Shown piece after piece: positions 7,413 through 52,914 of a stretch of DNA of 64,000 nucleotides. The position numbers and the translations under genes are program-made. A model generated the notes under the pieces. That model saw only the letters and a list, made by a program, of their open reading frames with translations. It searched no databases and was not told the DNA's origin. Each line of letters starts with the position of its first letter. Position 1 is the first letter of the stretch. This DNA is from Escherichia phage 4MG, in sequence record NC_022968.1, one strand, 5' to 3'.

Positions 7413-7436
7413 AAAAAAGGGGCCGAAGCCCCTTTA
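7413..7436. terminator. bidirectional hairpin terminator
   Basis: A-run, GGGGC-cgaa-GCCCC, T-run; just downstream of tape measure stop. Confidence 0.5.
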
Positions 7437-7438
7437 AA

Positions 7439-9832: not shown

Positions 9833-9885
9833 TGATTTCCTCTCAATAAAAAAGCCAGGTTCCCGAAAAGGAACCCGGCTTGAGA

Positions 9886-36144: not shown

Positions 36145-37827
36145 TTACAGTTGAGCGGCTGCTCGTTCACGAATCGTTGTCAGGTCTTCATCGACAATCA
36201 GTTTGCCGTTGTAGAACACACGACGCAGTTCGTTATCGTCAGACTGTACATCTTCAAGCTGACAATTGTCAATCAGTTCTAGCTGACCAAACATATTGCG
36301 AACAACCTTCAGGAAACCTTTTGCAGACTTCTTACCGAGGTCAGTCTTAGGTTCTTTGACAACCATGATCTGCTGACCATCAATAACCGCACCAGTTGCC
36401 TTCACAGCCATACCCAGTGAATCGCGGGTTGTGTACTGGGTAGTAAAGGAACCAACACCGTACACGATATTGCTGGATGCAAAGCCTTTATCTTTCAGAC
36501 GTTCAAAGATGTCTTTTGCACGAGCAACAGTGATAGAGTCACCGTAGATCAGGCCAACATGACTATCCAGAACTTTGTAACCCTTGGAGTTAACTTCACC
36601 ACCAAAGATTTCCCACAGACACTGGATTGCACCTTTGACTTCATGGTCTTGCAGATCGGAAGGCTCAAGATCAAGGTAATCCGTATCTTCATCGAATTCG
36701 ATGTTGTAATACTTACCTTTGACTGATACAACTTCACCTTTCTCGCTTTCCCATGCTGCGTCTTTGGCTTCAGACAGCGTTTCGAAATCACCAATATAAC
36801 GATACCCCGCAATGATATGTTCCGGAATGCCTGAATCAGGACGGAACACAACACGACCGTCACGAGCCATGATTTCTTCTTTCAGAATCAGTGCTGCACG
36901 GGTAATAATCGCCCAGAAGTCATAGCTGTCTGCTACGTAGGAAACAAAACCTTTCGGGAAAATTTCCGTGATGTAGCGTTTCAGGAATTCAACTTCAGCC
37001 AGGAAACGCAGTTCATCCAGGGACAAATCAGGATTTTCAGTTTTCAGGCGACCGACGATAAAGCCAATGTTAGTTGTTGCAACACTGTGTTCTGATGCAG
37101 GAATAGAACCAGCAACGAACTTACCTTTCATGTTGTAATAACGGTTCGCATACAGAATCGCAGGAATGGTATCTGTACCCATTGAGTTGATCAGTTGACC
37201 AAACTCACTCTGTGCCGCGTCGTGAGTACCAGATTCACCGCGATAAGCGAAGCAGTGGTTCTGGAACGGAACATGCAGGTTGTTATCACAAGTTTCGGCA
37301 GCGTATGCTTCAGACAGTTTGCGATACTGCCAGAAGGTAGTTGCAGTTGTGATGGTTTTCCATGTCTCTGCGGAGATCACGCTTTCCAGGAAGTTCGGCA
37401 ACCAGTAAAAATCAGGGTGCGTGTTCTGAATGGTGAACAGCGGAACCTGTACCGGGGACAGAGTGCCTTCAGGAATCGAACGGATTTCCAGTGGCAGGTA
37501 ACCAAGGTCATGCAGCTTTTCAAAGCCCCAGGTTTCAACCATGTCCGGGCCGATGCTCAGTTCACAAATTTCTTTGTACTGTGCGATAGCCGCTTTCTTT
37601 TTCATTTTGAAAAAGTTTTCGTTGAACAGGTCGATCAGGAACCATTTGATGAAACCTTGCAAGCCAGCCATCATCACACGCTGATCGTTATCAGCGAAGT
37701 GAATGAAGTGCTTTGCATTGCGTGGTGTCATGTTGTCCTGAACAATTTCAGAACGTCGGTCATACATGGAGATGTGTGAAGGTTTGTAAAAGTCAGCGAA
37801 TACGAGTGGGCTTTCTTTATGCAGCAT
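36145..37827 (-). CDS. nicotinamide phosphoribosyltransferase family protein (560 aa)
   Basis: NAMPT-like sequence features across ORF by recall; adjacent to PRS-like gene. Confidence 0.7.
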   Translation of the reverse strand: MLHKESPLVFADFYKPSHISMYDRRSEIVQDNMTPRNAKHFIHFADNDQRVMMAGLQGFIKWFLIDLFNENFFKMKKKAAIAQYKEICELSIGPDMVETWGFEKLHDLGYLPLEIRSIPEGTLSPVQVPLFTIQNTHPDFYWLPNFLESVISAETWKTITTATTFWQYRKLSEAYAAETCDNNLHVPFQNHCFAYRGESGTHDAAQSEFGQLINSMGTDTIPAILYANRYYNMKGKFVAGSIPASEHSVATTNIGFIVGRLKTENPDLSLDELRFLAEVEFLKRYITEIFPKGFVSYVADSYDFWAIITRAALILKEEIMARDGRVVFRPDSGIPEHIIAGYRYIGDFETLSEAKDAAWESEKGEVVSVKGKYYNIEFDEDTDYLDLEPSDLQDHEVKGAIQCLWEIFGGEVNSKGYKVLDSHVGLIYGDSITVARAKDIFERLKDKGFASSNIVYGVGSFTTQYTTRDSLGMAVKATGAVIDGQQIMVVKEPKTDLGKKSAKGFLKVVRNMFGQLELIDNCQLEDVQSDDNELRRVFYNGKLIVDEDLTTIRERAAAQL

Positions 37828-37880
37828 GTTTTGTTTCTCCTTTGTGTGTTTTGATGGGGTGATTCTACACCCCGTTTCGT

Positions 37881-38414
37881 TTAGATGTCAAGTGAAAAAT
37901 CTAAAGATTTAGATTCTTCTGTTACAACCGTTGTTTCTTTAACCAGACGACAGCCTTTCACCTTGATTTCTTTGGCTGGTGACCACTTAGTCGCACGGAT
38001 ATAGAATGTGTTTGCACGAATAACCATGAACCGGGCTACATCTTCAGGTGGTTCCTCGTTAATAAAAATCGCAACACTTTCGTATGCAGGCCACTTCATA
38101 GGGTTTTCATCGGTAACATCGGAATGTATACCATTACCGTTGTTAGTGCGACCCGGTGTAGGCCAGATAGTACAAGGTCGATAGCAGGCGTGGTCATCAG
38201 GAACCTGAATAACGTGATTTTCTAACCACGAGCAAATTTTTTCCAGGTCAAAATCATAATGGTCTTCTTTCAGGTCTTCAATATCTGTACGATATTCAGC
38301 CCCAACACCACACTCACCGATTTGCCCGGTAATATGAGCGCACATGTCACGCTCAAAGTTTCCTGCGTATGAGTCAGTATCGACAACAAAAATAAAACGA
38401 GTTGATTCAGTCAT
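37881..38414 (-). CDS. hypothetical protein (177 aa) between NAMPT-like and PRS-like genes
   Basis: ORF track; Cys/His-containing, no family recognised. Confidence 0.45.
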   Translation of the reverse strand: MTESTRFIFVVDTDSYAGNFERDMCAHITGQIGECGVGAEYRTDIEDLKEDHYDFDLEKICSWLENHVIQVPDDHACYRPCTIWPTPGRTNNGNGIHSDVTDENPMKWPAYESVAIFINEEPPEDVARFMVIRANTFYIRATKWSPAKEIKVKGCRLVKETTVVTEESKSLDFSLDI

Positions 38415-39214
38415 TAAAAATTCTCCGTCCAGTCATGGTATGCGTAGATTTCATCAACCCCGCCATCGAGGATGATTTGTTTCCCGAATGAGAAAATGCC
38501 GTGCGTAACGTAAAGGATAACACGTTTTGCACCATTCTCTTTCAGGGCTTTAGCCAGGGCGATGAAGGTACGACCACCATCACAGATATCATCGACGACA
38601 ACGCATTCGCGTCCTTCAACATCACCAAAGATTGCTGTCCCCGTAATTTCGTTTGTTTTCAGGTCACGAACCTTACCAGCTTCAACCAGAGGGAGTCGCA
38701 TACGGTCGGCAACCTTCTGTGCCTTCTTGCGAGCGCCTGCGTCTGGTGCAACAATGGTCACATCTTTCCCGGCAAGTTGATCATGGAATTCTGCAACAAG
38801 AATCTCTTGTCCACGAATCTGAACATTGTCCAGCAGTGCAGCAGAAACATCACTGTGTGGGTCATCAACAATCACTTTGTCGAAGCCAAGCGAGTTGACG
38901 AGGTTTGCAAAAACCTTGATAGATAGTGACTGTCCAGGTTGCATCACGCGATCCTGACGGGCATACGGGATGTATGGCAGGTGCAGGGTAAACTCAGCAT
39001 GGTTATGCAGCCCTTCAAGACGGGAACATGCATCCACCAACATAGCTAATGCCATGACATCGGTGGAGTTTTTGATTTTTGCAGTGATATCGACGAAACC
39101 AATACCGCCTTTTGGGGCATGTTTCAGATCAATCTCAACCTGTTCCTCACCACCCTTGAAGGTGAAGTGGTTAACAGGCACTTCCAGTTTGTTCAAGCGT
39201 AATTCAATACTCAT
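38414..39214 (-). CDS. ribose-phosphate pyrophosphokinase family protein (266 aa)
   Basis: PRPP-binding motif CVVVDDICDGGRT; shorter than typical bacterial Prs. Confidence 0.7.
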   Translation of the reverse strand: MSIELRLNKLEVPVNHFTFKGGEEQVEIDLKHAPKGGIGFVDITAKIKNSTDVMALAMLVDACSRLEGLHNHAEFTLHLPYIPYARQDRVMQPGQSLSIKVFANLVNSLGFDKVIVDDPHSDVSAALLDNVQIRGQEILVAEFHDQLAGKDVTIVAPDAGARKKAQKVADRMRLPLVEAGKVRDLKTNEITGTAIFGDVEGRECVVVDDICDGGRTFIALAKALKENGAKRVILYVTHGIFSFGKQIILDGGVDEIYAYHDWTENF

Positions 39215-39215
39215 T

Positions 39216-39533: not shown

Positions 39534-39539
39534 GTCTCT

Positions 39540-39805: not shown

Positions 39806-39811
39806 TTGTTA

Positions 39812-40135: not shown

Positions 40136-40252
40136 GAAGCGTTGTAAGACGTTTTTATTGTGTGGTAGTACACTTGGGTTACCAACACCTGTTTAATTCA
40201 ATACAGGGCCGCTCAGAGGCTCTGAGGGCTATTGTGGAGGGTTAATTTGGAT

Positions 40253-40522
40253 ATGAAAAGCATTAGCAGTGAAAACTCCATCTACAAAGATGCGTATGAC
40301 GCTTTGGTGGGGTTCATGAAAGCTGCTGAGAAGCGGTATGGTGTGAAACTATACCTTGACAGCAAGGTTGACTGGGGTAAGACATGGATGGACTCCAGTG
40401 TGTACATTCATGGTGATCGCCATGTGGTTAATTTGGTGTGCATGAAACTGATTGTGTGGCAACACCAACAGAAGATTCTGGACGGTATTCTGTACGCTTA
40501 CCCGGCATCGGAGATGAAATGA
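40253..40522 (+). CDS. hypothetical protein (89 aa)
   Basis: ORF track 40232..40522; ATG 40253 after GGAGGG. Confidence 0.4.
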   Translation: MKSISSENSIYKDAYDALVGFMKAAEKRYGVKLYLDSKVDWGKTWMDSSVYIHGDRHVVNLVCMKLIVWQHQQKILDGILYAYPASEMK

Positions 40523-40803
40523 AAAAGGATATCAAGAAACCAGTTCGTGAGAAGTTCGATACCGAGGCGTTTGTGTTCACAACCGATATTGGTGTGATCA
40601 AAGAGGCGCTTCAGCGACTACATGACCAGGAGGCAGATCCTGAAGCAGAACCACTGACCAAAGACCAGATCTACTGGATGGGTTGGTGGGAGCTTAACAT
40701 GCCGGAGGTTGATCGTCGTAAGATCGAAAAGGTACTCACCTGCGCTAAAGAGAATGCGGCCTTGGGCCTGTATAAGAAAACCACAAAGAGGAAGAAAAAA
40801 TGA
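40519..40803 (+). CDS. hypothetical protein (94 aa)
   Basis: ATGA start/stop overlap, RBS GGAG. Confidence 0.4.
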   Translation: MKKDIKKPVREKFDTEAFVFTTDIGVIKEALQRLHDQEADPEAEPLTKDQIYWMGWWELNMPEVDRRKIEKVLTCAKENAALGLYKKTTKRKKK

Positions 40804-41039
40804 GCAGACTTTCAAAGCTTCACAGACGAAAGAACATGCTGAAAGAAAAGCAGAAAAATATCACCGCAACTTTCCAAGTGTGCCGTGAAGCTATGAAGGC
40901 AAATCTGATAACGCCTTCACAGAGGCAGATTATCCGTGATATACTCCGGCCTGTGCTGCACGACCTGGAGGGCGAGGTTCGTGATGTTTTATGCCACATT
41001 CAAGAAGAACTTGAAAAATTAAATCAGGAGAATACATGA
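40800..41039 (+). CDS. hypothetical protein (79 aa)
   Basis: ATGA overlap with upstream gene. Confidence 0.4.
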   Translation: MSRLSKLHRRKNMLKEKQKNITATFQVCREAMKANLITPSQRQIIRDILRPVLHDLEGEVRDVLCHIQEELEKLNQENT

Positions 41040-41629
41040 TCGACCACGTTACATCAGACACGCATTGGTGGCACACCAATATTCTGGGTTTTCCCTCGTG
41101 TGATAAATTCCGGAAAAACCTGTACGGTCCAAAGGAAGTCCGTGAAAGTCTGTATGCCATGAATGCTGGCATGATTGAAATCTGGAATAAGCACGTCAAA
41201 CCAGATGATGTCGTAGCACACCTCGGTGATTTCGTGATTGCTTACGGACGCTACATGGAGCCTCGCGTTCGTGACATCTTGGAAAAGATCAACGGAAAGA
41301 TCATTCTGGTTGGTGGAAACCATGACAACCGAGATACGAAACGTATCTTCCGTGAGTTTGGTCACGAAGTTGTTGATTATAAAGAGATTAACTTCAGCAC
41401 TGGAAAAGAGAAGGTGCATGTGTGTATGTCTCACTATCCGTTTGCATCGTGGAATAAAGCTCACCACGGGTCAGTTATGCTGCACGGTCATAGCCACGGC
41501 TCCTATACAGCCCCTGGTGGACGTATTCTGGATGTGGGTTGGGATGTACATGGTCGTCCTCTGACGATGCGTGAAGCCGTCCTGATGTGCCTTGAAAAAC
41601 CAATTTACACTGCTGATCACGGAGAATAA
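41036..41629 (+). CDS. calcineurin-like metallophosphoesterase (197 aa)
   Basis: motifs HLGDF, GGNHD, HGHSH typical of Ser/Thr phosphatase-type phosphoesterases. Confidence 0.65.
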   Translation: MIDHVTSDTHWWHTNILGFPSCDKFRKNLYGPKEVRESLYAMNAGMIEIWNKHVKPDDVVAHLGDFVIAYGRYMEPRVRDILEKINGKIILVGGNHDNRDTKRIFREFGHEVVDYKEINFSTGKEKVHVCMSHYPFASWNKAHHGSVMLHGHSHGSYTAPGGRILDVGWDVHGRPLTMREAVLMCLEKPIYTADHGE

Positions 41630-41630
41630 T

Positions 41631-41987
41631 ATGCACAACAAAGTACGTAATTTCTTACCTAAGAAAACATCTAAGTCTTTTTATGCTACGATACACATTG
41701 CTGGGGATCTGGAATCAGCAAGACCATTGCTCCGTCAATGGACTATGCGTGGTGCTTGTGTACAACTAGTCGGGTGTGATTACATCTACACTGGCGGCTC
41801 TGAACGGGGTATGACAGTTCGCATCATGCAGTATCCTCGTTTTGAACGACCGGAGCACGAGATCCTTGAAATGGCGGTTGAACTTGCTAACTTTTTAGCT
41901 CAGGAACTCTGCCAGATCAGTTTCAGCATTGAAACTCCTTACAATACAACGTATTACCAAGCAGAAGGTTACGAAAAGCGATCATGA
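41631..41987 (+). CDS. hypothetical protein (118 aa)
   Basis: ATG 41631 after RBS GGAGA. Confidence 0.4.
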   Translation: MHNKVRNFLPKKTSKSFYATIHIAGDLESARPLLRQWTMRGACVQLVGCDYIYTGGSERGMTVRIMQYPRFERPEHEILEMAVELANFLAQELCQISFSIETPYNTTYYQAEGYEKRS

Positions 41988-42187
41988 AAATTCACAACAT
42001 AACCAAGGACAGGATTCATTTCATAATGGATTCAGGGGCTTACGGTTCAATTTCAAAGGTGGATGCCATGAAGTTTCTGTATGCTTCAAATATTCCTCAG
42101 GCAAAGCTTGACTCCCGTTCAGGAGAGTGTATTATTGACTCTATTACGAATACACAAGAACTGTGGGAGATATATCATGAAATTTAA
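41984..42187 (+). CDS. hypothetical protein (67 aa)
   Basis: ATGA overlap. Confidence 0.35.
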   Translation: MKIHNITKDRIHFIMDSGAYGSISKVDAMKFLYASNIPQAKLDSRSGECIIDSITNTQELWEIYHEI

Positions 42188-43097
42188 CGTAGATGATCTG
42201 GTTGCTAAAAAGCTGGTAACCAAAAAGACTTACACCGAAGGCCCGTTCGCGGGTCTGTCTGTACTGAAATATAAGAACAATGTGTTCTGGGATAACCTGT
42301 GGCACACAGATGCGCGTCTGCTTGAGTGCCGTGGCATGGTTGTTGATGCAGAGGACAACGTTGTTATCTGGCCTTTCACGAAGATTTTCAATCGCTTCGA
42401 GAACAACACTGATGTCCCACAGGACAAGTTGGTGTGCGTACCTCGTAAAGTCAATGGCTTTATGGCAGCAATGAGTGTTTACAATGGTGAAGTAATTGTG
42501 TCTACCACAGGAACACTTGATTCTGAGTTTGCACAAATGGCAAAAGATAAGATCACTGGTTCCATGCCTGAAGGGATGCTTGACTATTTCGTGAAGAATG
42601 CTGGACCTTGCACACTTATCTTTGAAATATGTGATGAGAGTGATCCCCACATTGTCGCAGAAGAAGCGGGTGCTTATCTGATTGGTTGCCGGGTCCACTT
42701 AAGTGGTGGTATGCTTCCAGAGTGGGACCTTGATAGAGTTGCAAATCGTTATGGTTGGAAACGTGCTGACTGGGACAACATGATCTTCAGCGATGTTGTT
42801 AAGGCTTCCAAGTCAGTTAATCATGAAGGTTTTGTTGTTCGTGATGTTGACACCAATGAGCTACTGCTGAAAATTAAGTCTCCACATTACCTGGCGAAGA
42901 AGTTCCTGATGCGTGGTAGCCAGAACAAGTGGGACCTGATTTGGGACAACCCGAAAGAAGCCAAAAAACGTATCGACGAAGAGTTCTACGAACTTCTTGA
43001 CTGGCTGCGCTGGGCTTACGAAAAAGATGAGTGGGCGGCTAAGGACTCTCAGTATCGTCGTATGATTATTGAAAAATATTTTGAGGATCGCAAATGA
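42177..43097 (+). CDS. ATP-dependent ligase-like nucleotidyltransferase, putative RNA ligase (306 aa)
   Basis: covalent nucleotidyltransferase motifs I KVNG, IV EGFVVR, V LLKIK; start ATG 42177 within ORF 42081..43097. Confidence 0.5.
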   Translation: MKFNVDDLVAKKLVTKKTYTEGPFAGLSVLKYKNNVFWDNLWHTDARLLECRGMVVDAEDNVVIWPFTKIFNRFENNTDVPQDKLVCVPRKVNGFMAAMSVYNGEVIVSTTGTLDSEFAQMAKDKITGSMPEGMLDYFVKNAGPCTLIFEICDESDPHIVAEEAGAYLIGCRVHLSGGMLPEWDLDRVANRYGWKRADWDNMIFSDVVKASKSVNHEGFVVRDVDTNELLLKIKSPHYLAKKFLMRGSQNKWDLIWDNPKEAKKRIDEEFYELLDWLRWAYEKDEWAAKDSQYRRMIIEKYFEDRK

Positions 43098-43330
43098 CAC
43101 TCATGTCAATCAAGAACAAACTTGACCGGGCTGTTTCCATAATTACCAGACTTATCATTGGGTTATCTGTGTTTATCTTCTTATTTGCACTGATAATCTT
43201 TGTGAATTGGGTTATCGAAACTCTGGGTGGTAAAGTAATATTCGGTGGAATTCTGCTCATCATTGCGGTGATTGGCTGTTATGGTGTTGGATGTTCCATC
43301 TACCCACACAAAGAAAAGGGTGAAAAATGA
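43094..43330 (+). CDS. small membrane protein (78 aa)
   Basis: two hydrophobic helices. Confidence 0.4.
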   Translation: MTLMSIKNKLDRAVSIITRLIIGLSVFIFLFALIIFVNWVIETLGGKVIFGGILLIIAVIGCYGVGCSIYPHKEKGEK

Positions 43331-43671
43331 TCATCTGGCTTGATGACTTGAGAGACCCAAAAGACTACGGGTATCCTGATGCCTTGTGGTTCAAGACCTC
43401 TCAGAAGTTTATGGATTTTCTTGATAATCGGTCAAAGTTCTATCGTTATGTCACAGAGTGGCATTTTGATAATGACCTAGGTGAAGATTCAGAAAAGGAG
43501 GGCTATGACTGCCTACTGGCCTTGGAAGAGAAGCTTGTGTATGGGAAACTTCCTGTGCATGATGCTAAACTCTATGTCCATACGTCTAACCCTTCTGCGG
43601 CACAAAAGTTCATGCTTGCAAAAGAGAGCTTCTTGAAGTATCGTATCACGATCTTAAGAAACAATTACTGA
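43327..43671 (+). CDS. hypothetical protein (114 aa)
   Basis: ORF track, ATGA overlap. Confidence 0.4.
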   Translation: MIIWLDDLRDPKDYGYPDALWFKTSQKFMDFLDNRSKFYRYVTEWHFDNDLGEDSEKEGYDCLLALEEKLVYGKLPVHDAKLYVHTSNPSAAQKFMLAKESFLKYRITILRNNY

Positions 43672-43680
43672 GGAGAAGAG

Positions 43681-44088
43681 ATGGAAAAGACTCTGATCAT
43701 CCTGCGTGGTGTGTCTGGTGCTGGTAAGTCTACAGTAGCAGATATGCTGGCAGAGGATTTGTGGCCTGTCTATGAAGCAGATAAATTCCACTACACAGAA
43801 GATGGCGTGTACGACTGGAAACCTGAAAACATGCAGGCTGCACACGCATGGTGTCAGTCAGAGGTCAAAGATATGATGGGGTGGAATATCAGCAGGATCA
43901 TCGTATCTAACACCTCTACCAGTGAAAAAGAACTGAAGCCGTATCTTGATCTCGCAGCGGAGAACGGGTATCGTGTCATCAGCTTGGTGGTAGAAAACCG
44001 TCATGGCAATGACTCCATTCACAGCGTTCCGCAGGAAACCCGCGATGCTCAAGAGCGTCGTCTGCGTAACTCATTGAAATTACAGTAA
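43681..44088 (+). CDS. P-loop kinase, polynucleotide-kinase-like (135 aa)
   Basis: Walker A GVSGAGKST at N-terminus; small AAA-kinase architecture. Confidence 0.55.
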   Translation: MEKTLIILRGVSGAGKSTVADMLAEDLWPVYEADKFHYTEDGVYDWKPENMQAAHAWCQSEVKDMMGWNISRIIVSNTSTSEKELKPYLDLAAENGYRVISLVVENRHGNDSIHSVPQETRDAQERRLRNSLKLQ

Positions 44089-44098
44089 GGGGAAACAA

Positions 44099-44875
44099 TT
44101 GAGGCGTTTAATTGTTATTAGTGGTGCAGGCTTCTCTGCTGAAAGCGGTGTTCGTACATTCCGTACTGATACAGACTCCGGAAAGGCTTTGTGGGATGAG
44201 TACGACCTTGAAGAGGTCTGTAATATCCATGCTTTCCGTGGTAATTTCTATCACAAAACGCACATGTTTTATAACAAGCGTCGTGTAGAACTGCAAACTG
44301 TGCATCCGAATGCTGCACATATGCGTGTTGCTGAGTGGTATAAAAACTACCCAAAACAGGTTGTTAATCTGACGACAAACGTAGATGACCTGCTGGAACG
44401 TGCTGGTGTTCCTAAGGAAGATACTCTGTATATCCACGGATATCTGAAAGAACTTCGGTATAAACTTCACGAAGATTCTGAAGAGCAGTTAGTTGACATT
44501 GGTTACAATGAAGTAGATCCTGATGAATTTCACTGGTGCAAACCAAATGTGGTCTTCTTTGGTGAGGCTGCTCCAGCATATAACGACCTATACTCAACCC
44601 TAGATAGCCTGACATCTGAAGACATGGTGATTGTTGTTGGATGCTCAAACACAGTTATCAACTTCAACTGGGAGCTTTTCCCAGCATCAAGGATGGGTAC
44701 TAAGATTGTTGTGGTTAACCCTAATGTTCGCTACGATGAACAGTTGATGTACGAAGACGCTGGTGTTGTTGTATACCGAACTGGTGCTGTAGATGCGTTC
44801 AGCAACCCTGGTCTCATCAAAATGGTTGAGGATCACCTTGAAGGTAAAACCTCATTGCAGAAGAAGGAGAAATAA
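44099..44875 (+). CDS. Sir2-family (sirtuin-like) NAD-binding protein (258 aa)
   Basis: motifs GAGFSAESGVRTFR, TTNVDDL, YIHG, VVFFGE; canonical Zn-binding Cys pairs not evident; TTG start. Confidence 0.6.
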   Translation: MRRLIVISGAGFSAESGVRTFRTDTDSGKALWDEYDLEEVCNIHAFRGNFYHKTHMFYNKRRVELQTVHPNAAHMRVAEWYKNYPKQVVNLTTNVDDLLERAGVPKEDTLYIHGYLKELRYKLHEDSEEQLVDIGYNEVDPDEFHWCKPNVVFFGEAAPAYNDLYSTLDSLTSEDMVIVVGCSNTVINFNWELFPASRMGTKIVVVNPNVRYDEQLMYEDAGVVVYRTGAVDAFSNPGLIKMVEDHLEGKTSLQKKEK

Positions 44876-46179
44876 TGTCAATTAGTTTAGACACACCAAC
44901 ACTATACGCCATTAACAAGGACGGATCGTATCAAGTTTGGAATGTAACCACAGAAGGTGATGAGGTTGTCGTTTCTTTCGGTAAGGAAAATGGAAAGATT
45001 CAACAAAAGCGCACCAAGTGTGAAATGAAAAACATTGGTCGTTCCAATGAAACCACCGCTGAGTTCCAGGCCGTCCTGGAGGCCCGGTCTAAGTGGGAGA
45101 AACAGGTCCGTTTAGGTTATCGTGAGACCAAAGAGGAGTTACAGACGGAAGAGAACTTCTCTCCTATGCTGGCACACGATGCGATCAAACGGTCAAAGTC
45201 AATCGTCTATCCTGCGTATATTCAGCCAAAGCTCGATGGTGTTCGTGCTCTTGTGACGCTTGACAAGGACGGCATCCCGGTGTTTAATAGCCGTGGCAAC
45301 AAAACATACCCAGTACAGGGCGCTTTATTGCAGCAAGTTAAAGAACTTGCAGAGCACACAGGGTTTGACAAGTTCGATGGTGAACTGTATATTCATGGTC
45401 TAAGCCTTCAGAAGATTGTTGCTTTGGCTAAGAAGTGGCGCACCCCTGAACAGATTGAAGCTGAGATCGAGAAAGACTATCAGGCTGATATCAAGCGCTG
45501 TAATAAGGCGGTTGCCGATGGTGAGCATCTCTGGAAAGACTTTGATGGTAATGTGTGGGCTGTTTCCACGTATAAACCAGTAAAAGACGTTGACCGCTTC
45601 AGTGGTTATTCCAGTCTTGACCTAGAGTATCACATCTTTGACATTCCTGTGAATGCACAAAGCCCTTGGTACTCTTATGAGCATGATAAGACCAGACATC
45701 AAGATCTGTTGGTGGTTGCCGATGCTGTTGAATGTGAACTTAACGTACCTATGGTGAAAGTTATCCACGGGATCGTGGTATCTTCTGAAAGGGAAGTTAA
45801 ATGGTCCATCGGTAAATACATGGAGCAGGGATTTGAAGGTTCAATCATCCGAAACTTCAAAGGTGTCTACGAATTTGGTCAACGATCCTCTGATCTCCAA
45901 AAATGGAAACAGTTCCAGGATGGTGAGGCAAAAGTTCTTGATTCTGTAGAGGATAAGAACGGTGAGGGTGTCCTGCTCTGTGAAGAAAGAGATGGTACTC
46001 GATTCAACTGCAAAATGAAAGGCACTCACGCAGAGCGTTCTCAGGCGAAGATGCTATTGTTGGTTGGCGATTTCATCAACTTTACATTCCAGTCGCGTAC
46101 TGATGATGGTGTACCTCAGTTCCCGGTGGGGCAGAGTGTACGTGAACTTGATACATTAACATGGGAGCCAGTATACTAA
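44875..46179 (+). CDS. ATP-dependent DNA ligase (434 aa)
   Basis: motif I KLDGVR, motif III DGELY, motif IV EGSIIR. Confidence 0.7.
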   Translation: MSISLDTPTLYAINKDGSYQVWNVTTEGDEVVVSFGKENGKIQQKRTKCEMKNIGRSNETTAEFQAVLEARSKWEKQVRLGYRETKEELQTEENFSPMLAHDAIKRSKSIVYPAYIQPKLDGVRALVTLDKDGIPVFNSRGNKTYPVQGALLQQVKELAEHTGFDKFDGELYIHGLSLQKIVALAKKWRTPEQIEAEIEKDYQADIKRCNKAVADGEHLWKDFDGNVWAVSTYKPVKDVDRFSGYSSLDLEYHIFDIPVNAQSPWYSYEHDKTRHQDLLVVADAVECELNVPMVKVIHGIVVSSEREVKWSIGKYMEQGFEGSIIRNFKGVYEFGQRSSDLQKWKQFQDGEAKVLDSVEDKNGEGVLLCEERDGTRFNCKMKGTHAERSQAKMLLLVGDFINFTFQSRTDDGVPQFPVGQSVRELDTLTWEPVY

Positions 46180-46625
46180 TGGGATTCTATAAACGTAAAC
46201 CTCAGGAAGTTGAAGCACACGTATTCAACGGATCGAGCACAGGGGTTGGTCAGGTGACCAAGTGGATCGAGACCGGGGTCTGGAAAGACGCTGAGATCCA
46301 CACACGGGATATCCGAAATATGGACGTGAATGGCGTTCAGGCGTTTCCTGGTGATTACATAGTAAAAGTGGGTGACCAGTTCACAGCAATGTCCCCACAA
46401 GCGTTCAGCGACCTTTATGAGGCTGTTAGCGATGAAGATCGTCTTCCAGGGGACTACAAAGCAAAGAACGTAGTGATGGGTGACAAAGTTGAGATGTGGG
46501 GTAAAGACTACATCGTAAAAGGTCACAAAATCAGTGGTGACGATATTATCCTCACCCTTGATGACGGATCTAACATTCAGCTTCGCGGCGAAGCAACCGT
46601 GAAGGTAACAGAGGTACGTGCATAA
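46179..46625 (+). CDS. hypothetical protein (148 aa)
   Basis: ORF track 46161..46625, ATG overlapping ligase stop. Confidence 0.4.
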   Translation: MGFYKRKPQEVEAHVFNGSSTGVGQVTKWIETGVWKDAEIHTRDIRNMDVNGVQAFPGDYIVKVGDQFTAMSPQAFSDLYEAVSDEDRLPGDYKAKNVVMGDKVEMWGKDYIVKGHKISGDDIILTLDDGSNIQLRGEATVKVTEVRA

Positions 46626-46996
46626 TGATCTGGTACTGGCTGGCGCTCTTAGGCGCAACACTGGTCACAGGGGGCGGTATTTATACCGCTTTCCGTTTCC
46701 GGAAAGACAAGCTCGATGACTTTATCGACTGGATTCAGGGTAAAGTAAAACGACTGCTGTTGATTTGGGCTGTGGTGTTGGGCCTGGTAACGCTGGCCCT
46801 TACCAAACCGTTGTGGAACACCATGACCTGTCAGTTCGACGGCATGGCCTACAAGGTGAATACGTCTTATTCTTGGTATAAGAATGGGACATATGGCGAC
46901 AAATGCCTGTTCGTTGCTAAGAACGGTGCTCTTTTGCCATTACGAATTATCCGTGACCAACCGGAAGGTGATCACGCAACAGATGTAATTAATTAA
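46625..46996 (+). CDS. membrane protein (123 aa)
   Basis: two N-terminal TM helices. Confidence 0.4.
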   Translation: MIWYWLALLGATLVTGGGIYTAFRFRKDKLDDFIDWIQGKVKRLLLIWAVVLGLVTLALTKPLWNTMTCQFDGMAYKVNTSYSWYKNGTYGDKCLFVAKNGALLPLRIIRDQPEGDHATDVIN

Positions 46997-47005
46997 GGAG
47001 AATCA

Positions 47006-47695
47006 ATGAGTAAGGTTTACGAAACACTTTTAGCGATGACAAAACCAACAGATCTGTACGCATATGCGGAGCATGTTATCGAATGGAACCATGTTGCATA
47101 TCGTGCTCGCAATAATGTGGCAACACCATTCGATCTGCAATGGGGCTTTATTCGTGAAGAATTCAACGAACTCGTTGACGCACTCCGTGTTGGTGACCGT
47201 ATCGAAACTGTTGACGCTGCCTGTGATCTCTTTGTTGTAGCTTCATACGCTTGCCAGTTGAAGAGTCCTGAGTATCTTCGTGAAGCCTGTATTCCTTCAC
47301 CGACACTGACGTTCACTATTGGCGATCTTGAGCACAACCTGTATGGCAATATGCGAGACCCGGTTTATGTTCTTAAGCTGGTAACTGCATTATGTTATCG
47401 CCTTGATATTAATCTTGACTACAATATGCGACAGGTGTTACATTCAAACGATACCAAATACCCATATGTGCAAGATATCCTTGCCTTGTGGCCTGGTAAG
47501 GCGAAAGCCGAAGCTTTACGTCAAGAATGTAAGGCAATCGAAGATCGTTCCAATGGTCGTTATGAGGGTGTTGGTTTCCGCGAGGTAATTGATATCCGCA
47601 ACCCGGATGTTAAAGGTTCACGCCTTGTCTTCTTCGATAGAAACGGAAAAATCATGAAGCCAAGCACTTTCGAAAGTCCGAAAATTATTGCTTGA
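47006..47695 (+). CDS. hypothetical protein, possible MazG-like NTP pyrophosphohydrolase (229 aa)
   Basis: segment IREEFNELVDALRVGDRIETVDAACDL resembles EExxE...D motif; weak. Confidence 0.35.
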   Translation: MSKVYETLLAMTKPTDLYAYAEHVIEWNHVAYRARNNVATPFDLQWGFIREEFNELVDALRVGDRIETVDAACDLFVVASYACQLKSPEYLREACIPSPTLTFTIGDLEHNLYGNMRDPVYVLKLVTALCYRLDINLDYNMRQVLHSNDTKYPYVQDILALWPGKAKAEALRQECKAIEDRSNGRYEGVGFREVIDIRNPDVKGSRLVFFDRNGKIMKPSTFESPKIIA

Positions 47696-47719
47696 CAATG
47701 GATAAGGGGTCTGTATAAT
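47692..47719 (+). promoter_or_regulatory. consensus sigma70 promoter (TTGACA, 16 nt spacer, TATAAT)
   Basis: -35 47692..47697, -10 47714..47719; upstream of RBS GAGGAGAA and gene 47750. Confidence 0.65.
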
Positions 47720-47749
47720 GGCCCCTATCAAGACAGAGAGGAGAAAGCA

Positions 47750-47971
47750 GTGGAAGAAATTATTGATTACCCAGAGATTATTGCGTTAGCTAATCGCCTC
47801 GGCATTACTATCGTCAGTCGTGGTCCAAATACACGTTATCTGATCCGCTTCACCATGAAACGTCGCTGGGGTGGCGCTAAGAAGTACGCTTACGAATGTA
47901 CGCTTGGCACACTGACAGCGTATGTTGACCAGATTGAGCGCTCTGGTGGAAAGATTGTCGGCATTGATTAA
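47750..47971 (+). CDS. hypothetical protein (73 aa)
   Basis: ORF track; GTG start with RBS. Confidence 0.4.
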   Translation: MEEIIDYPEIIALANRLGITIVSRGPNTRYLIRFTMKRRWGGAKKYAYECTLGTLTAYVDQIERSGGKIVGID

Positions 47972-47977
47972 AAGTGT

Positions 47978-48005
47978 TTGACAAAAAGAATTAAAAAGCT
48001 ATACT
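47978..48005 (+). promoter_or_regulatory. sigma70-like promoter (TTGACA, 16 nt spacer, TATACT)
   Basis: -35 47978..47983, -10 48000..48005; upstream of RBS AGAGGAGA and ATG 48039. Confidence 0.6.
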
Positions 48006-48038
48006 GAACAGACTAAATAAACAGAGGAGAAACAAAAC

Positions 48039-48401
48039 ATGGCACGTACCGCAAAAATCAAAGTAGCACTGATCACCTCCCTGCCTTCTGACCCGGCATC
48101 CCGCGAGCGTCTGAAGTCAACCGTTAACGAAATCGTTGATCTACAGCGTCAAATCGCTGACCTGAAAGACCAGATCAAGGACATTCGTGCTGTGGAAAAA
48201 GAAAACCACAACATCTCTCCTAAGTTCCTGAATTCTCTGGTAAAACGTGAGTACGATGTGCGTTATGAAGCAGAGAAGAAGACTGCTGCACTCGATGCAG
48301 AGCAAGAGATCTTCACCGAAGCGGATATCCTGTTCGGTCGCGGCAAGCCTGCAAATGTCGCACAAACCGAAGAAGATGACGGTGCTGAGGACGCTGAATA
48401 A
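48039..48401 (+). CDS. hypothetical acidic protein (120 aa)
   Basis: ORF track. Confidence 0.4.
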   Translation: MARTAKIKVALITSLPSDPASRERLKSTVNEIVDLQRQIADLKDQIKDIRAVEKENHNISPKFLNSLVKREYDVRYEAEKKTAALDAEQEIFTEADILFGRGKPANVAQTEEDDGAEDAE

Positions 48402-48592
48402 TGAAACACTACCTTAACGCTGTTGGTATCTTCCTGTTTATCTGCATCACCTTTGGCGTCGGTGTTCCGACGCTGGTGTCAGCGAAAGATACCCTGATGC
48501 TGTGTGCTGGTTTTGCATGGATCATCGCAACACCTGCAATCGTGTGGTATTGGGCGAGAAAAGCGTTCTTCCCTAAAAAATCGGAGGCGTAA
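48401..48592 (+). CDS. small membrane protein (63 aa)
   Basis: two hydrophobic segments. Confidence 0.4.
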   Translation: MKHYLNAVGIFLFICITFGVGVPTLVSAKDTLMLCAGFAWIIATPAIVWYWARKAFFPKKSEA

Positions 48593-48756
48593 TGTTACTA
48601 AACCTGAAAGCGTCTACCTGGGAAAAGTTGCAGCACTTAGCGCGAGTTAAGAATAAGTCTGCTGCTGCCCTTGTAGCAAAAATTGTTGACGAACATGTTG
48701 ACGAGAAAGTAAAAACTACCTATAAAATTGAAGAGGAGAACCAAACCAATGCTTAA
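48592..48756 (+). CDS. small ribbon-helix-helix-like DNA-binding protein (54 aa)
   Basis: ATG 48592 after RBS GGAGG; LNLKASTWEKLQHLAR..SAAALVAKIV pattern; hand-translated. Confidence 0.35.
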   Translation: MLLNLKASTWEKLQHLARVKNKSAAALVAKIVDEHVDEKVKTTYKIEEENQTNA

Positions 48757-49639
48757 GAATATCAAACGTGTGATTTTTGCTGGCCTGATCGCTCTGGGTG
48801 CCGTTGGCCTGACTGGTTGTGAACGTGCAACTGTCCCGGCAGGTTATGTGGGTGTGAAGGTTGACCTGTATGGCGACGAAAAGGGTGTTCAGCAGCAGGA
48901 AGTGGGTGTTGGTAAATACTGGCTGACCTGGAACGAAGAAATCTATCAGTTCCCTACATTCAACCAGTTAAACAACTACGACCAACCGTTTAACTTCCAG
49001 ACCAAGGATTCTATGACGGTCTCTGCGAAGGTTGGTGTTGAGTATTACGTTGACCGCTCCAAGGTCACCAAGATCTTCCAGACCTACCGTAAAGGTGTTC
49101 AGGAAATCACTGATGTCAACATTCGTCAGAACATCTCTGATGCACTGATCAAAGAAGCGGGTACGATGGATATCGGTACGCTGGCTGGCGATGGTAAATC
49201 TCAGCTTCTGGATCGTGTGACGAAGACCCTGAAAGCGAAGCTTGACCCGATTGGTATCGTGATCGTGAAACTGTCTTACACTGATGATCTGCGTTATCCA
49301 CCACAGGTAACCGCATCCATCAACGCGAAGATCGAAGCGACTCAGAAAGCGCTGCTGCGTGAAAACGAAATCCAGCAGACCAAAGCTGAAGCTCAGAAAC
49401 AGATCGAAGCCGCTCGCGGTGAAGCTGAATCTAAGCGACTGCAAGCTCAGGGTGAGGCAGATGCTAAAGTAGCACTGGCAAAAGGTGAAGCAGAATCCAT
49501 CCAACTGCGTGGTGATTCTCTCCGCAAAAACCCAGAAATTATGCAACTGGAAGCGATCAACAAGTGGAACGGTGTGACCCCGGTCTATATGACCAGCGGT
49601 TCTCAGACCCCATTCGTTACCCTGCCAGCAGGTAAATAA
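48749..49639 (+). CDS. SPFH/band-7 domain lipoprotein (296 aa)
   Basis: signal peptide with lipobox LTGC, then SPFH-like core and C-terminal coiled coil; start within ORF 48728..49639. Confidence 0.55.
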   Translation: MLKNIKRVIFAGLIALGAVGLTGCERATVPAGYVGVKVDLYGDEKGVQQQEVGVGKYWLTWNEEIYQFPTFNQLNNYDQPFNFQTKDSMTVSAKVGVEYYVDRSKVTKIFQTYRKGVQEITDVNIRQNISDALIKEAGTMDIGTLAGDGKSQLLDRVTKTLKAKLDPIGIVIVKLSYTDDLRYPPQVTASINAKIEATQKALLRENEIQQTKAEAQKQIEAARGEAESKRLQAQGEADAKVALAKGEAESIQLRGDSLRKNPEIMQLEAINKWNGVTPVYMTSGSQTPFVTLPAGK

Positions 49640-49642
49640 GAG

Positions 49643-49675
49643 TTGACAAAAGGCCCGGTGATAGATTATCATCGG
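49643..49675 (+). promoter_or_regulatory. TTGACA box overlapping near-perfect inverted repeat CCCGGTGATA...TATCATCGGG
   Basis: intergenic between 49639 and 49703; possible promoter/operator. Confidence 0.35.
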
Positions 49676-49702
49676 GTCTCAACTTAACAAAGGAGATACA
49701 AA

Positions 49703-49897
49703 ATGATCCGCACAACAATTCTTTTAGCAGTAGCTCTGCTCTCTTCTCCGGCGTTCGCCACAGTTAATACACTCTCTTTGGTAGATGAATACACCGATGG
49801 GAGTTCTAAAGTATGCATCTACAGCGACGGTAACCGTACCGAAAGCGTTGTGAAAGAAGGTGCTGGCTCATGTCCGTCTAAAAAGACGTTCCACTAA
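49703..49897 (+). CDS. small secreted protein (64 aa)
   Basis: N-terminal signal peptide MIRTTILLAVALLSSPAFA. Confidence 0.4.
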   Translation: MIRTTILLAVALLSSPAFATVNTLSLVDEYTDGSSKVCIYSDGNRTESVVKEGAGSCPSKKTFH

Positions 49898-49908
49898 GAG
49901 GATGAACC

Positions 49909-50415
49909 ATGAGAGTAACTGATCAGCATGTTTTCTTCTTCACTTATCGTGATATGTTCAGCAACCACTTTCGACAGATAATTCCTATTCGTTGTGGTGG
50001 CTATGAGTTCTTCACGGTGGAGCACTTTATGATGTTCCAAAAAGCAATGCTCTTTGATGACAAAGAGATTGCTGCACGTATTGCCACAGTTGATAATCCA
50101 AACGAGGCAAAAGCGCTGGGTCGTAAAGTCAGGGACTTTGACAACAGTGTTTGGGAAGAAAACAGAATGGACATTGTAACAAACGGTCTTGTTCTGAAAA
50201 TGAAGGCTAACCGCTCTATTCTGGAGTCTGCACTGACTCACAGAGATGCTGGGCGGCGATTTGTAGAGGCATCCCCGTATGATGCAATCTGGGGTGTAAA
50301 ACTGAATGAATATGATCCACGCATTGATGATCCTGCTAACTGGCAAGGTCTTAATCTTCTCGGTGAGTGCTGGGAAAGAGCAATTGATGTTGTGATCGCA
50401 GCTTCGTGGAGGTGA
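49909..50415 (+). CDS. NADAR-domain protein (YbiA-like, DUF1768) (168 aa)
   Basis: N-terminal FFFTYRDMFSNHF, EHFMMFQKAML, later WGVKLNEY block characteristic of YbiA/NADAR family by recall. Confidence 0.6.
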   Translation: MRVTDQHVFFFTYRDMFSNHFRQIIPIRCGGYEFFTVEHFMMFQKAMLFDDKEIAARIATVDNPNEAKALGRKVRDFDNSVWEENRMDIVTNGLVLKMKANRSILESALTHRDAGRRFVEASPYDAIWGVKLNEYDPRIDDPANWQGLNLLGECWERAIDVVIAASWR

Positions 50416-50416
50416 G

Positions 50417-50854
50417 TTGAAATTAGAGATTGAACTTGTTCCAAAAACAGCTTGGTTTACTAACTTACGCTCTCACCTCACTAAATCCCAATGGGATGTC
50501 GTAAGAAAGAAATGCTATGCCAAAGCCAATTACAGATGTGAGATTTGTGGTGGTAAAGGGAATAAGCACCCTGTTGAGTGTCACGAAATCTGGGACTTTG
50601 GTAATGGTAAGATCACGCTGAAAGGTCTTATCGCGCTCTGCCCGTCATGTCACGAAGTAAAACATATCGGCCTTGCTGGTATTCGTGGAAGAGGAGAGAT
50701 TGCCCTTCGTCACTTCATGAGGGTCAACAATGTCTCCCGACAGGTTGCAGAGAAATACGTGAGCGAGGCATTTGCCTTGTATCATGAACGGAGTAAGCGA
50801 GAGAAATGGGAACTGGATGTCCGGTATTTGGACGAGTATTTGAGTAACGATTGA
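50417..50854 (+). CDS. HNH-like zinc-finger nuclease (145 aa)
   Basis: TTG start after RBS GGAGG; CEICGG...ECHEIWDF...CPSCHEVKH. Confidence 0.45.
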   Translation: MKLEIELVPKTAWFTNLRSHLTKSQWDVVRKKCYAKANYRCEICGGKGNKHPVECHEIWDFGNGKITLKGLIALCPSCHEVKHIGLAGIRGRGEIALRHFMRVNNVSRQVAEKYVSEAFALYHERSKREKWELDVRYLDEYLSND

Positions 50855-50862
50855 GAGGGCTA

Positions 50863-51984
50863 GTGGGATATCCGTATGATAAAGATTGGAAAAATAAAGT
50901 CACGAATGACTGTGTGATCGCTTTAGACCTTGACCAGACTTGCTTTGTGTCTGCTGCTGGCGCTGAGAAGCGCACAATTAAGGCAACACACATCGCCTCT
51001 GGCAGGGAAAAGATCTTCAAAAACAGAACAGAATTCTGGGGTTCCACCAAAAGGGTGGTGGGCGGTTGGCTAAAAGACCAAAACGCCAATATGGAAATTA
51101 AGGCAAAATCCGAGGGTCGTGAATTCACACCTTGGGGACGCGATGACTTCCTGATTGAGGATATTCAGACTCCGGAACCTGTTGAAAACTGTCTGCACAT
51201 CCTGAAAACAAAGATCAACGCGATCTTTGAGCACTTAGAGATGGACAGCCAGTATGGTATGGGCGTGTTGGGTGGGGAAAATAACTTCCGTCTACTACTG
51301 CCTGCACCAGAACGCTATAAGGGTAACCGTGAGGACACCCTACGTCCTAAACTGTTACAGGAAACGCGTGATTACGTCAAGAAGAAGTACAAGGCAAAGG
51401 TAATTGACGGAGTAGAGGCAGATGATTATCTTTCTGTCCTGATGAATACCGGGTGGGAGTTCTACCAGGCGACTGGCAAGTTCAACTACATGGTTGCATC
51501 CTTCGACAAAGACCAGAAAGGAACGCCGGGGCTTCTGTTCGACACCATGCGGGACAGTGAAGAGAGATCATGGAAACATCCTATCCCTATGGTCATTGAT
51601 GACTCTATGGGTGAGATTTGGATGGAAGGTAATAAGGTTAAGGGTTGGGGACGTAAGTTCTTCGGCTACCAGATGCTCTGTGGCGATAGCTCAGATAACA
51701 TCAAGCCTTATCAGTGCTTTGACATCTCCGGACGATTTGGTGATACCGCCGCATTCAACCTAATCGGTCATTTACAGACTGAAAAGGATATGTGGACAGC
51801 TATTGTTGACCAGTATAAGACCTGGTTCCCTCAGGGTGTGGAGTTTACATCGTGGGATGGAACACAGCGTAAAATGAGTGCTGGTCAGTGGGCTTCGATC
51901 ATCTTCCAGATGGTATACATGAAGCGCACAGCCAACGATCCAACAACTCTGGCAACAGAACTGCGTCGTGTGGGGGTTTTATGA
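50863..51984 (+). CDS. 5'-3' exonuclease / flap endonuclease (FEN family)
   Basis: motifs YKGNR, GVEADDYLSV, GDSSDNIKP; start codon uncertain (GTG 50863 or TTG 50851). Confidence 0.6.
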   Translation: MGYPYDKDWKNKVTNDCVIALDLDQTCFVSAAGAEKRTIKATHIASGREKIFKNRTEFWGSTKRVVGGWLKDQNANMEIKAKSEGREFTPWGRDDFLIEDIQTPEPVENCLHILKTKINAIFEHLEMDSQYGMGVLGGENNFRLLLPAPERYKGNREDTLRPKLLQETRDYVKKKYKAKVIDGVEADDYLSVLMNTGWEFYQATGKFNYMVASFDKDQKGTPGLLFDTMRDSEERSWKHPIPMVIDDSMGEIWMEGNKVKGWGRKFFGYQMLCGDSSDNIKPYQCFDISGRFGDTAAFNLIGHLQTEKDMWTAIVDQYKTWFPQGVEFTSWDGTQRKMSAGQWASIIFQMVYMKRTANDPTTLATELRRVGVL

Positions 51985-52286
51985 TTGATGGGATGATCAT
52001 GGAAGCAGTAATGAGGGACTCCAAGGCCCTCGCTGTTTCTTCTCTGAAGCCTAAGTTCATAGTTGGAACAGGTATTTGGCGTATGCTTGAGACAGACCAC
52101 GGTGACTACGTGGTCTTCACAGATGACTTTATTGACCCGGATAAGGCCTTCACGGTACTTCTTCTTGAAGATTGTGAGCTTGTTGAAGGTGAGAAGTTGC
52201 TGTTGTTGACAAGCGTTGCCTATGGAGACCTTGAATGCTCCCTTGTTCTTTTCCGTGAAAATGCTGTGGATGGGAATGATGAGTGA
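51981..52286 (+). CDS. hypothetical protein (101 aa)
   Basis: ATG 51981 overlapping upstream stop. Confidence 0.4.
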   Translation: MIDGMIMEAVMRDSKALAVSSLKPKFIVGTGIWRMLETDHGDYVVFTDDFIDPDKAFTVLLLEDCELVEGEKLLLLTSVAYGDLECSLVLFRENAVDGNDE

Positions 52287-52914
52287 TTTCCCATATGTAC
52301 TGATGTCTGTTGACCAGTCGCTATCCCATTGTGCTGTTGTTATCTGGCGCGATGGGGTGCCAATCTACAGGGAGATGATCAGGACAGGGTCTACAAAGAG
52401 TAAAGGGAAGCAAAGCCCGGATGTCTACTACTTTGACACTGTTTATGAGCAGATAGAGCACATCTGTAAGCGCATAAATGAACTCTGTGAAGAGTATTCA
52501 CCCGATGACTATGTGATGGAAGCACTAAGTCTTGGATCGATTGGTAGCGCAACAAGGGACCTTGCTGGACTGTTTTATTGTATTGCTCTCAGTCTGGATG
52601 ATTGCGGTAATCATTTTATTGAATACTTCAATATCCACACTGTTGCACCAACTTCTGTTAAGTCTTTTGCCCGTAGTCTGCTCCCGGAAGATGAGCAATG
52701 GGAAGTTAAGGAAAAGCTTGACAAAAAGAAGAATAAAATGGTATCATCCAAGTCCAAAGTTAAGATGGACAAAGCCATGATGGTTAAGGCTGTCAATTAC
52801 GACTGCCCTGGCTGGTTGGATGGTGTTACTCTTGCAGCAGGAAAGGCTGACTATGCAGATGCATATTTGATTGGGAAAAAGTTCTTGGAGGACCTATCCG
52901 CAGGAAAAGAGTAA
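52276..52914 (+). CDS. RuvC-like Holliday junction resolvase
   Basis: N-terminal LMSVDQSLSHCAVVIWRDG, central DYVMEAL, C-terminal ADYADAYLIG match RuvC catalytic blocks by recall; start approximate. Confidence 0.5.
   Translation: MMSDFPYVLMSVDQSLSHCAVVIWRDGVPIYREMIRTGSTKSKGKQSPDVYYFDTVYEQIEHICKRINELCEEYSPDDYVMEALSLGSIGSATRDLAGLFYCIALSLDDCGNHFIEYFNIHTVAPTSVKSFARSLLPEDEQWEVKEKLDKKKNKMVSSKSKVKMDKAMMVKAVNYDCPGWLDGVTLAAGKADYADAYLIGKKFLEDLSAGKE

Follow-up and report, generated by a model that had tools for sequence, protein, structure and literature searches.

The gene examined here lies within a stretch of 64,000 nucleotides from the genome of Escherichia phage 4MG (sequence record NC_022968.1), the whole of which we refer to as the window. 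On its forward strand, positions 49909..50415 (stop codon included) hold an open reading frame (ORF) that begins with ATG, ends with TGA, and encodes a NADAR-domain protein of 168 amino acids. Inspection of the sequence places a Shine-Dalgarno motif, AAGAGGA (49896-49902, forward strand), 6 nt upstream of the ATG, where it overlaps the stop codon of a preceding small ORF. The product matches the Pfam profile PF08719 (NADAR / DUF1768) with E=6.2e-34 and 118.1 bits against a gathering cutoff of 35.1, and the alignment spans positions 13-155 of the 163 in the profile, the protein consisting of this single domain. It also matches TIGR02464 of NCBIfam (120 bits, cutoff 73.7), PHROG 1017 (phrog_1017, E=1.6e-50), and the NADAR-like PADLOC model PDC-M42C (E=2e-28). 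The observed NADAR match is far beyond chance. Comparison with the orthologues of phages EC152 and GAP31 gave a ratio of nonsynonymous to synonymous substitution rates (dN/dS) of 0.04-0.05 at a dS of ~0.5; thus, the ORF is protein-coding and under strong purifying selection. An antisense ORF at 49894..50346 was rejected as a gene because phage KB57 shows stop codons in that frame, and an Rfam search of 47000-52500 returned no structured-RNA match at E<=0.1.

An AlphaFold2 model of the protein, built on 47 homologues, reached a mean predicted local distance difference test score (pLDDT) of 97.5 and a predicted template modeling score (pTM) of 0.92. The predicted secondary structure consists of strands at residues 7-10, 27-29, 32-34, and 117-120 together with six helices, and the model shows the arrangement of the NADAR fold, namely an alpha-helical core with two small beta-sheets on its flanks. 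A Foldseek comparison of the model with the PDB returned only two entries, 8BAU, a crystal structure of the Phytophthora nicotianae NADAR with ADP-ribose (template modeling (TM) score 0.81), and 2B3W, which is YbiA of E. coli (TM score 0.76), and no PDB entry other than these two matched either the family profile or the AlphaFold2 model. In 8BAU, ADP-ribose is held by E43, K50, R79, W89, R93, E125, D130, and W133 (Schuller et al. 2023, PMC11543638). According to HMMER and multiple alignments, the counterparts of these residues in the phage protein are E38, K45, R72, W82, R86, E120, D125, and W128, of which six (E38, K45, R72, W82, E120, and D125) are invariant across the family alignment of 49 sequences. 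These eight residues, among them E38 with its codon at 50020-50022 on the forward strand, are the predicted catalytic and ADP-ribose-binding residues of the phage protein. Because counterparts to all of the ADP-ribose contacts in 8BAU are present, the active site of the phage protein is intact. The original prediction of a NADAR-domain protein at this position is thus confirmed by profiles, fold, active site, and selection.

Four groups of NADAR proteins are distinguished in the literature, namely the YbiA-type, the DarT1-associated DarG1, the T4-like phage NADARs, and 'NADAR proper' (PMC11543638, PMC12945103). Judged from its sequence, the phage protein belongs with the stand-alone 'NADAR proper' group alongside the Phytophthora enzyme. 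In a phmmer search, the Phytophthora NADAR was the best sequence match in the PDB (E=5e-15, compared with E=2e-3 for YbiA), and it likewise scored higher with the family profile (130 bits versus 75 bits for YbiA). The label 'YbiA-like', which the original prediction had attached to the protein, is therefore imprecise, as the protein scores better to the Phytophthora NADAR and YbiA falls outside its clade. The enzyme from Phytophthora nicotianae (8BAU) is also the best structural match, shares identical ADP-ribose contacts including the Glu at its E125, and hydrolyzes guanine-linked ADP-ribose (PMC11543638). However, it is eukaryotic, only 26% identical, and carries an extra N-terminal segment and an insertion beside the active site of its own (PMC11543638).

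Among phage proteins, a second and a third NADAR type have been described as AdfN-Bas32 of T5-like phages and AdfN-Bas60 of phi92-like phages (Johannesman et al. 2025, PMC11825919), where AdfN stands for 'anti-DarT factor NADAR'. Our comparison with validated AdfN proteins covered AdfN-Bas60 and AdfN-T4. Using BASEL genome records, we located AdfN-Bas60 as bas60_0111 of Escherichia phage PaulScherrer (Justusliebigvirus), and along its entire length it is 39% identical to the protein of the window (E=2e-35). A neighbor-joining tree of 162 columns with 200 bootstraps, which is a rough distance tree and not a maximum-likelihood one, supported the window clade at 99%, the Bas60 clade at 100%, and the union of the two at 86%, with YbiA and T4 gp30.3 outside. 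Both AdfN-Bas60 and the window protein are orphan stand-alone NADARs of large virulent enterobacterial myoviruses, and they have the N-terminal motif MR[VI]TD..VFFF, the motif VEASPYD, and the catalytic residues in common. They differ in that AdfN-Bas60 contains two insertions (after residue 24 and after residue 60) and a Tyr in place of W128, while the genes that precede its own encode an FtsH-like protease and a large hypothetical protein.

The remaining NADAR groups are more distant. DarG1 (E. coli C7 and Geobacter lovleyi) belongs to the same superfamily and has a proposed role in removing ADP-ribose from guanine in DNA, but it is distinguished by a DarT1 neighbor, Asp (D171) as its second catalytic residue, and an N-terminal extension that is basic and of beta-beta-alpha form (PMC11543638). 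A DarG1-type antitoxin was therefore rejected, since the phage gene has no toxin neighbor, the residue at the corresponding position is Glu120 and not Asp, and the protein, with an acidic isoelectric point (pI) of 5.8, begins at the first core strand. T4 gp30.3 (AdfN-T4) resembles the window protein as an orphan phage NADAR and has an anti-DarTG1 function; in contrast, it has a His at the position of E120 and a basic pI of 9.0 as opposed to 5.8. Moreover, it requires the context of a T-even phage to work (PMC11825919). It was rejected as the nearest phage relative because no BLASTP alignment was obtained.

YbiA of E. coli (2B3W) shares the fold and conserves the E/K/R/W/E/D/W residues, but it is only 22% identical, is placed outside the clade by the tree, and is the product of a chromosomal gene that has been shown to function in riboflavin metabolism. 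It is nonetheless the source of an alternative in which the phage protein would be a housekeeping N-glycosidase of the YbiA type and would break down reactive intermediates of the riboflavin pathway. The TIGR02464 model, named 'riboflavin biosynthesis intermediates N-glycosidase', speaks for this with a score well above its cutoff, as does the retention of the Glu by which de Souza and Aravind defined the YbiA family (PMC11543638), although the same Glu is also common to non-YbiA NADARs that hydrolyze guanine-linked ADP-ribose (PMC11543638). Several database records also annotate orthologues accordingly. The GAP31 and KB57 orthologues are named 'NADAR family protein' in RefSeq, other records use 'GTP cyclohydrolase II', 'YbiA-like N-glycosidase', or 'hypothetical protein', and JGI labels the relatives 'ribA/ribD-fused uncharacterized protein'. 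It is most likely that 'GTP cyclohydrolase II' goes back to the origin of the model in a ribA/ribD fusion; both this label and the common 'YbiA-like N-glycosidase' are probably misleading. Against a riboflavin role, YbiA matches the phage protein far less well than the Phytophthora NADAR does, and no rib gene occurs among the 103 features annotated in 43 kb around the GAP31 orthologue. Assignment to the YbiA subfamily was thus rejected on relative scores and the tree, notwithstanding the TIGR02464 match, and we regard a riboflavin-pathway enzyme as highly improbable. That TIGR02464 matches a protein so distant from YbiA shows that this model is broader than the YbiA subfamily.

On the strength of sequence, structural model, and analogy, the product of the gene is probably an AdfN-type enzyme, a stand-alone NADAR with ADP-ribosyl N-glycohydrolase activity, and it is from these that we infer its enzymatic activity, its substrate, and a counter-defense role in vivo. 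In the proposed course of events, host RNA polymerase would transcribe the gene from a sigma-70-like promoter along with genes for DNA replication and repair. The protein would bind ADP-ribose that a guanine of the phage DNA carries on its exocyclic N2, or possibly ADP-ribose on cytosine or RNA bases, and a center formed by Glu38, Lys45, and Glu120 would hydrolyze the N-glycosidic bond to release free ADP-ribose and the unmodified base. With the base restored, replication that had been stalled by a DNA ADP-ribosyltransferase of the host, of the DarT1 type or perhaps of the pierisin/ScARP type, could resume.

Such an activity would be in keeping with what is known of related enzymes. All NADAR subfamilies tested so far hydrolyze guanine-linked ADP-ribose in vitro (PMC11125620, PMC12945103), and cytosine is a further base from which enzymes of the 'NADAR proper' and YbiA types remove ADP-ribose (PMC12945103). 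AdfN-Bas60 neutralized DarT1 in E. coli in the absence of further phage factors and allowed RB69, T5, and Bas25 to plate again on hosts with DarTG1, but had no effect against the thymine-modifying DarTG2 (PMC11825919). These experiments on a protein of the sister clade, 39% identical to that of the window, lend support by analogy to the suggestion in the original prediction that the gene is an antidote to ADP-ribosylating toxins. The gene is probably a further member of the AdfN-type phage NADARs; databases name near-identical orthologues as NADAR proteins, and what the sister clade does has been published. If the assignment is correct, Seunavirus and Mydovirus phages of Enterobacter, Cronobacter, Klebsiella, and Salmonella also use the experimentally defined anti-DarTG1 strategy. 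These phages include candidates for phage therapy, and in that case DarTG1-type systems of the host would not be expected to restrict them.

Several observations weigh against an AdfN-type function. When expressed alone, neither T4 gp30.3 nor YbiA of E. coli countered DarT1 toxicity (PMC11125620), so that hydrolysis of guanine-linked ADP-ribose in vitro is no guarantee of protection in the cell. The acidic phage protein lacks the basic N-terminal extension that is proposed to bind single-stranded DNA in DarG1, and going by TIGR02464 its name would be riboflavin-intermediate N-glycosidase. Finally, the gene for its bacterial relative P0078 is located in an operon for NAD salvage and not beside a toxin gene, which suggests that the clade may have small-molecule substrates.

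The genomic position of the gene is conserved. The 3 kb around it are 92% identical at the DNA level to Enterobacter phage EC152, Escherichia phage LNA4, and Cronobacter phage GAP31, all of which belong to Seunavirus within the Vequintavirinae, and ~80% identical to Mydovirus phages of Klebsiella; the window itself is Seunavirus-like. The order of an SPFH lipoprotein gene, a small membrane or secreted ORF, the NADAR gene, an HNH endonuclease gene, and an exonuclease gene is kept in GAP31, EC152, PVP-SE1, KB57, and FENT2. There is no ADP-ribosyltransferase toxin among these neighbors, and the NADAR gene is thus an orphan.

Within this conserved frame, the NADAR gene itself is a gene-precise allelic cassette in backbones that are otherwise 92-98% identical. 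The lipoprotein, HNH endonuclease, and exonuclease of FENT2 share 95-98% of their amino acids with those of the window, whereas its NADAR protein shares only 54.5%; for PVP-SE1, the corresponding values are 92-95% and 58.7%. At the DNA level, identity to FENT2 is 83-96% upstream and 74% in the short intergenic stretch 49628-49727, drops to 55-66% over 49928-50330, and is back to 98% at 50428. Both types of allele occur in Seunavirus as well as in Mydovirus: the allele of KB57 is of the window type (87%), and the NADAR of Proteus phage Mydo is only 57.5% identical. Within an allele, by contrast, dN/dS is ~0.04. The largest differences between the alleles fall in the beta-hairpin just before E38, with a 5-residue insertion and a protein that is 6 residues longer overall, and the insertion of AdfN-Bas60 in the same hairpin is longer still. 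This cassette pattern is not described in the cited literature. It fits, without proving, a counter-defense gene that undergoes diversifying exchange between alleles and purifying selection within each. The gene-precise replacement of alleles counts in favor of a counter-defense role because such swapping is expected of genes of this kind, and the cassette provides a natural experiment on the substrate specificity of NADAR proteins.

Directly upstream of the NADAR gene lies the small ORF (49703..49897, forward strand), which encodes 64 amino acids with an N-terminal hydrophobic, signal-like segment and belongs to phrog_4641, a PHROG with no assigned function. At this position, GAP31, EC152, KB57, and FENT2 have ORFs that are 81-95% identical to that of the window (FENT2, 84%), while the ORF of PVP-SE1 shows 15% identity compared with 92-98% for the larger neighbors. 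The small ORF is thus unusually variable, and the variable patch may reach slightly past the NADAR gene. Upstream of both genes, a consensus scan identified a putative sigma-70-like promoter, TTGACA-N18-TATCAT (49643-49672, forward strand), with 11 of 12 matching positions. Its -35 and -10 hexamers are invariant in the window, GAP31, EC152, KB57, and PVP-SE1, and the small ORF is probably carried on the same transcript as the NADAR gene. An imperfect inverted repeat, GGCCCGGTGAT ... ATCATCGGGTC, occupies the promoter spacer and -10 region (49651-49680, forward strand) and is kept in five phages; it may be an operator or the terminator of the lipoprotein gene.

Downstream, the conserved HNH endonuclease gene (50417..50854, forward strand; phrog_5200) begins with a TTG codon 1 nt past the NADAR stop codon, and this proximity suggests that the two genes are probably translationally coupled. 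Beyond conserved synteny, no evidence for a functional linkage between the HNH endonuclease and the NADAR protein was found. According to the annotation of GAP31, the genes of the region encode DNA ligase, exonuclease, endonuclease VII, DNA polymerase, ThyX, and ribonucleotide reductase. The earlier placement of the gene in an early region is reasonable to this extent: because a conserved sigma-70-like promoter is present and the neighbors serve DNA metabolism, we infer that the region is expressed early or in the middle of infection.

This setting also bears on the nature of the modified substrate. It is conceivable that the NADAR protein reverses ADP-ribosylation of RNA bases, that is, of guanosine or cytidine in tRNA, rRNA, or mRNA, and would thereby guard phage translation and not replication. 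All tested NADAR families remove ADP-ribose from guanosine in RNA (PMC11833690), 'NADAR proper' and YbiA-type enzymes clear it from cytidine in DNA and RNA while DarG1 and the T4 NADAR cannot (PMC12945103), and the window protein has the Glu120 signature of the groups with broader specificity. However, CmdT, the sole antiphage RNA ADP-ribosyltransferase in the cited literature, modifies the N6 of adenine, and NADAR is not among the enzymes that reverse this modification (PMC12945103). The gene is also situated among DNA-metabolism genes, away from the RNA ligase and tRNA genes. We therefore consider a main role on RNA bases quite unlikely. A group of genes at 41036-44088 (forward strand) encodes a metallophosphoesterase, a protein that the annotation of GAP31 identifies as RNA ligase 1-like, and a small kinase-like ATPase of the AAA_33 family; together, they look like an RNA-repair module.

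Just downstream of this group is a gene for a Sir2-family protein (44099..44875, forward strand; 258 amino acids) with a canonical sirtuin profile (PF02146, E=2e-23; phrog_2162, E=1.5e-111). It is located 5 kb upstream of the NADAR gene, between the AAA_33 ATPase-like gene and the DNA ligase gene, and gave no match to the defense-Sir2 models of PADLOC. EC152 possesses the Sir2 gene and GAP31 holds a 225-bp ORF at that position instead, which indicates a presence/absence polymorphism. On the reverse strand, a PRS-like gene (38414..39214; Pfam Pribosyltran and Pribosyl_synth) probably encodes Adps, the ADP-ribose pyrophosphorylase of the NARP1 pathway, and is 41% identical to gene 79 (Adps) of Bas63 (E=2e-54). 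A NAMPT-like gene (36145..37827; Pfam NAPRTase) on the same strand probably encodes Namat, the nicotinamide ADP-ribose transferase of NARP1, and is 42% identical to gene 80 (Namat) of Bas63 (E=1e-130). The paired Adps and Namat homologues, whose enzyme specificities are predicted, are parted by an ORF of 177 amino acids (phrog_23621). Together with a winged helix-turn-helix (wHTH) protein, they form a string of four genes at 36145-39533 on the reverse strand, in the order wHTH protein, Adps-like PRS, 177-residue ORF, and Namat-like NAMPT. The wHTH protein has a weak match, under the cutoff, to the Pfam family 'wHTH-PRTase associated'. NARP1 uses ADP-ribose and nicotinamide to regenerate NAD+, and it overcomes defenses that deplete NAD+ (bioRxiv 10.1101/2024.02.11.579819).

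The original prediction had grouped the NADAR gene with Sir2-like, NAMPT, and PRS genes into a counter-defense arsenal dispersed over about 14 kb. The three neighbors are indeed present by Pfam, and the span from 36145 to 50415 amounts to 14.3 kb. By analogy with characterized systems, two of the three named NAD-related components (the NADAR protein and the NAMPT-like/PRS-like pair) have counter-defense homologues that are experimentally validated. Nevertheless, the genes are organized in separate units on both strands. We found Adps homologues in 1421 phage records and NADAR homologues in 715, in lineages that overlap only in part; for instance, the Adps carriers FelixO1-like Bas63 and ICP1 represent phage groups that are not among the NADAR matches listed or tallied by organism. 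An obligatory NADAR-NARP1 module is thus not supported. The term arsenal is fair for the co-residence of these genes in one early or middle arm of the genome, but not as evidence of a single system, and the separate units do not make up one operon.

The proximity of these genes raises the question of whether the NADAR protein acts mainly on soluble small molecules derived from NAD+ or ADP-ribose, in which case it would feed or complement the NAD+ economy of the phage (NARP1) and not serve DNA repair. Candidate substrates would be N-glycosidically linked derivatives of ADP-ribose, immune signals, or by-products of RNA repair. Such a role has been argued from gene context by Iyer et al., and it is consistent with the location of P0078 (48% identity over 73% of the query) in a NAD-salvage string and with the phage itself, where a 14-kb span contains homologues of the NARP1 genes together with genes for Sir2 and RNA ligase. 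However, the cited literature shows no soluble ADP-ribose-derived substrate for any NADAR, and the nearest tested relative, AdfN-Bas60, acts on DNA-linked ADP-ribose in cells. The NADAR and NARP1 genes are, moreover, separate transcription units on opposite strands, with phage distributions that overlap only in part. On balance, a predominant small-molecule role is possible but rather unlikely, and an AdfN-type enzyme acting on DNA remains our preferred interpretation. The NAD-salvage string of P0078 extends over 4294-10328 of a bacterial contig and comprises genes for an NrtR-like regulator, the NADAR protein, a PnuC-like transporter, a NadR-like kinase, an ADP-ribosylglycohydrolase, an NAPRTase, and an isochorismatase/nicotinamidase.

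The presence of NADAR and NARP1 homologues in one genome also suggests a link between de-ADP-ribosylation and the reconstitution of NAD+. Free ADP-ribose, the expected product of the NADAR protein, is the substrate of Adps, and this mechanistic connection is worth testing. A bolder extension combines it with the allelic cassette. The gene would then be a swappable specificity cassette with at least two alleles (55-59% identity) that counter different base-ADP-ribosyltransferases or escape a host inhibitor, while the released ADP-ribose feeds Adps and Namat. The allele would set the target range, be it guanine or cytosine, DNA or RNA, DarT1 or a pierisin-like toxin, and the phage would both repair its own DNA and rebuild the NAD+ consumed by the toxin. 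In this combined form, we hold the proposal to be speculative and unlikely.

Two further observations concern NADAR homologues in other phages. In Escherichia phage A7_1 (unclassified Vequintavirinae), the homologue at 2908-3551 is annotated as two ORFs and was recovered as two tblastn pieces, which suggests a frameshifted and possibly inactivated copy; a homing endonuclease lies downstream of the split gene. In addition, four 146-kb records labeled 'Campylobacter phage' (MG065639, MG065645, MG065656, and MG065689) carry a NADAR that is 98.3% identical to that of phi92-like phages of E. coli (Justusliebigvirus), and the 'Campylobacter' host labels of these records look doubtful.

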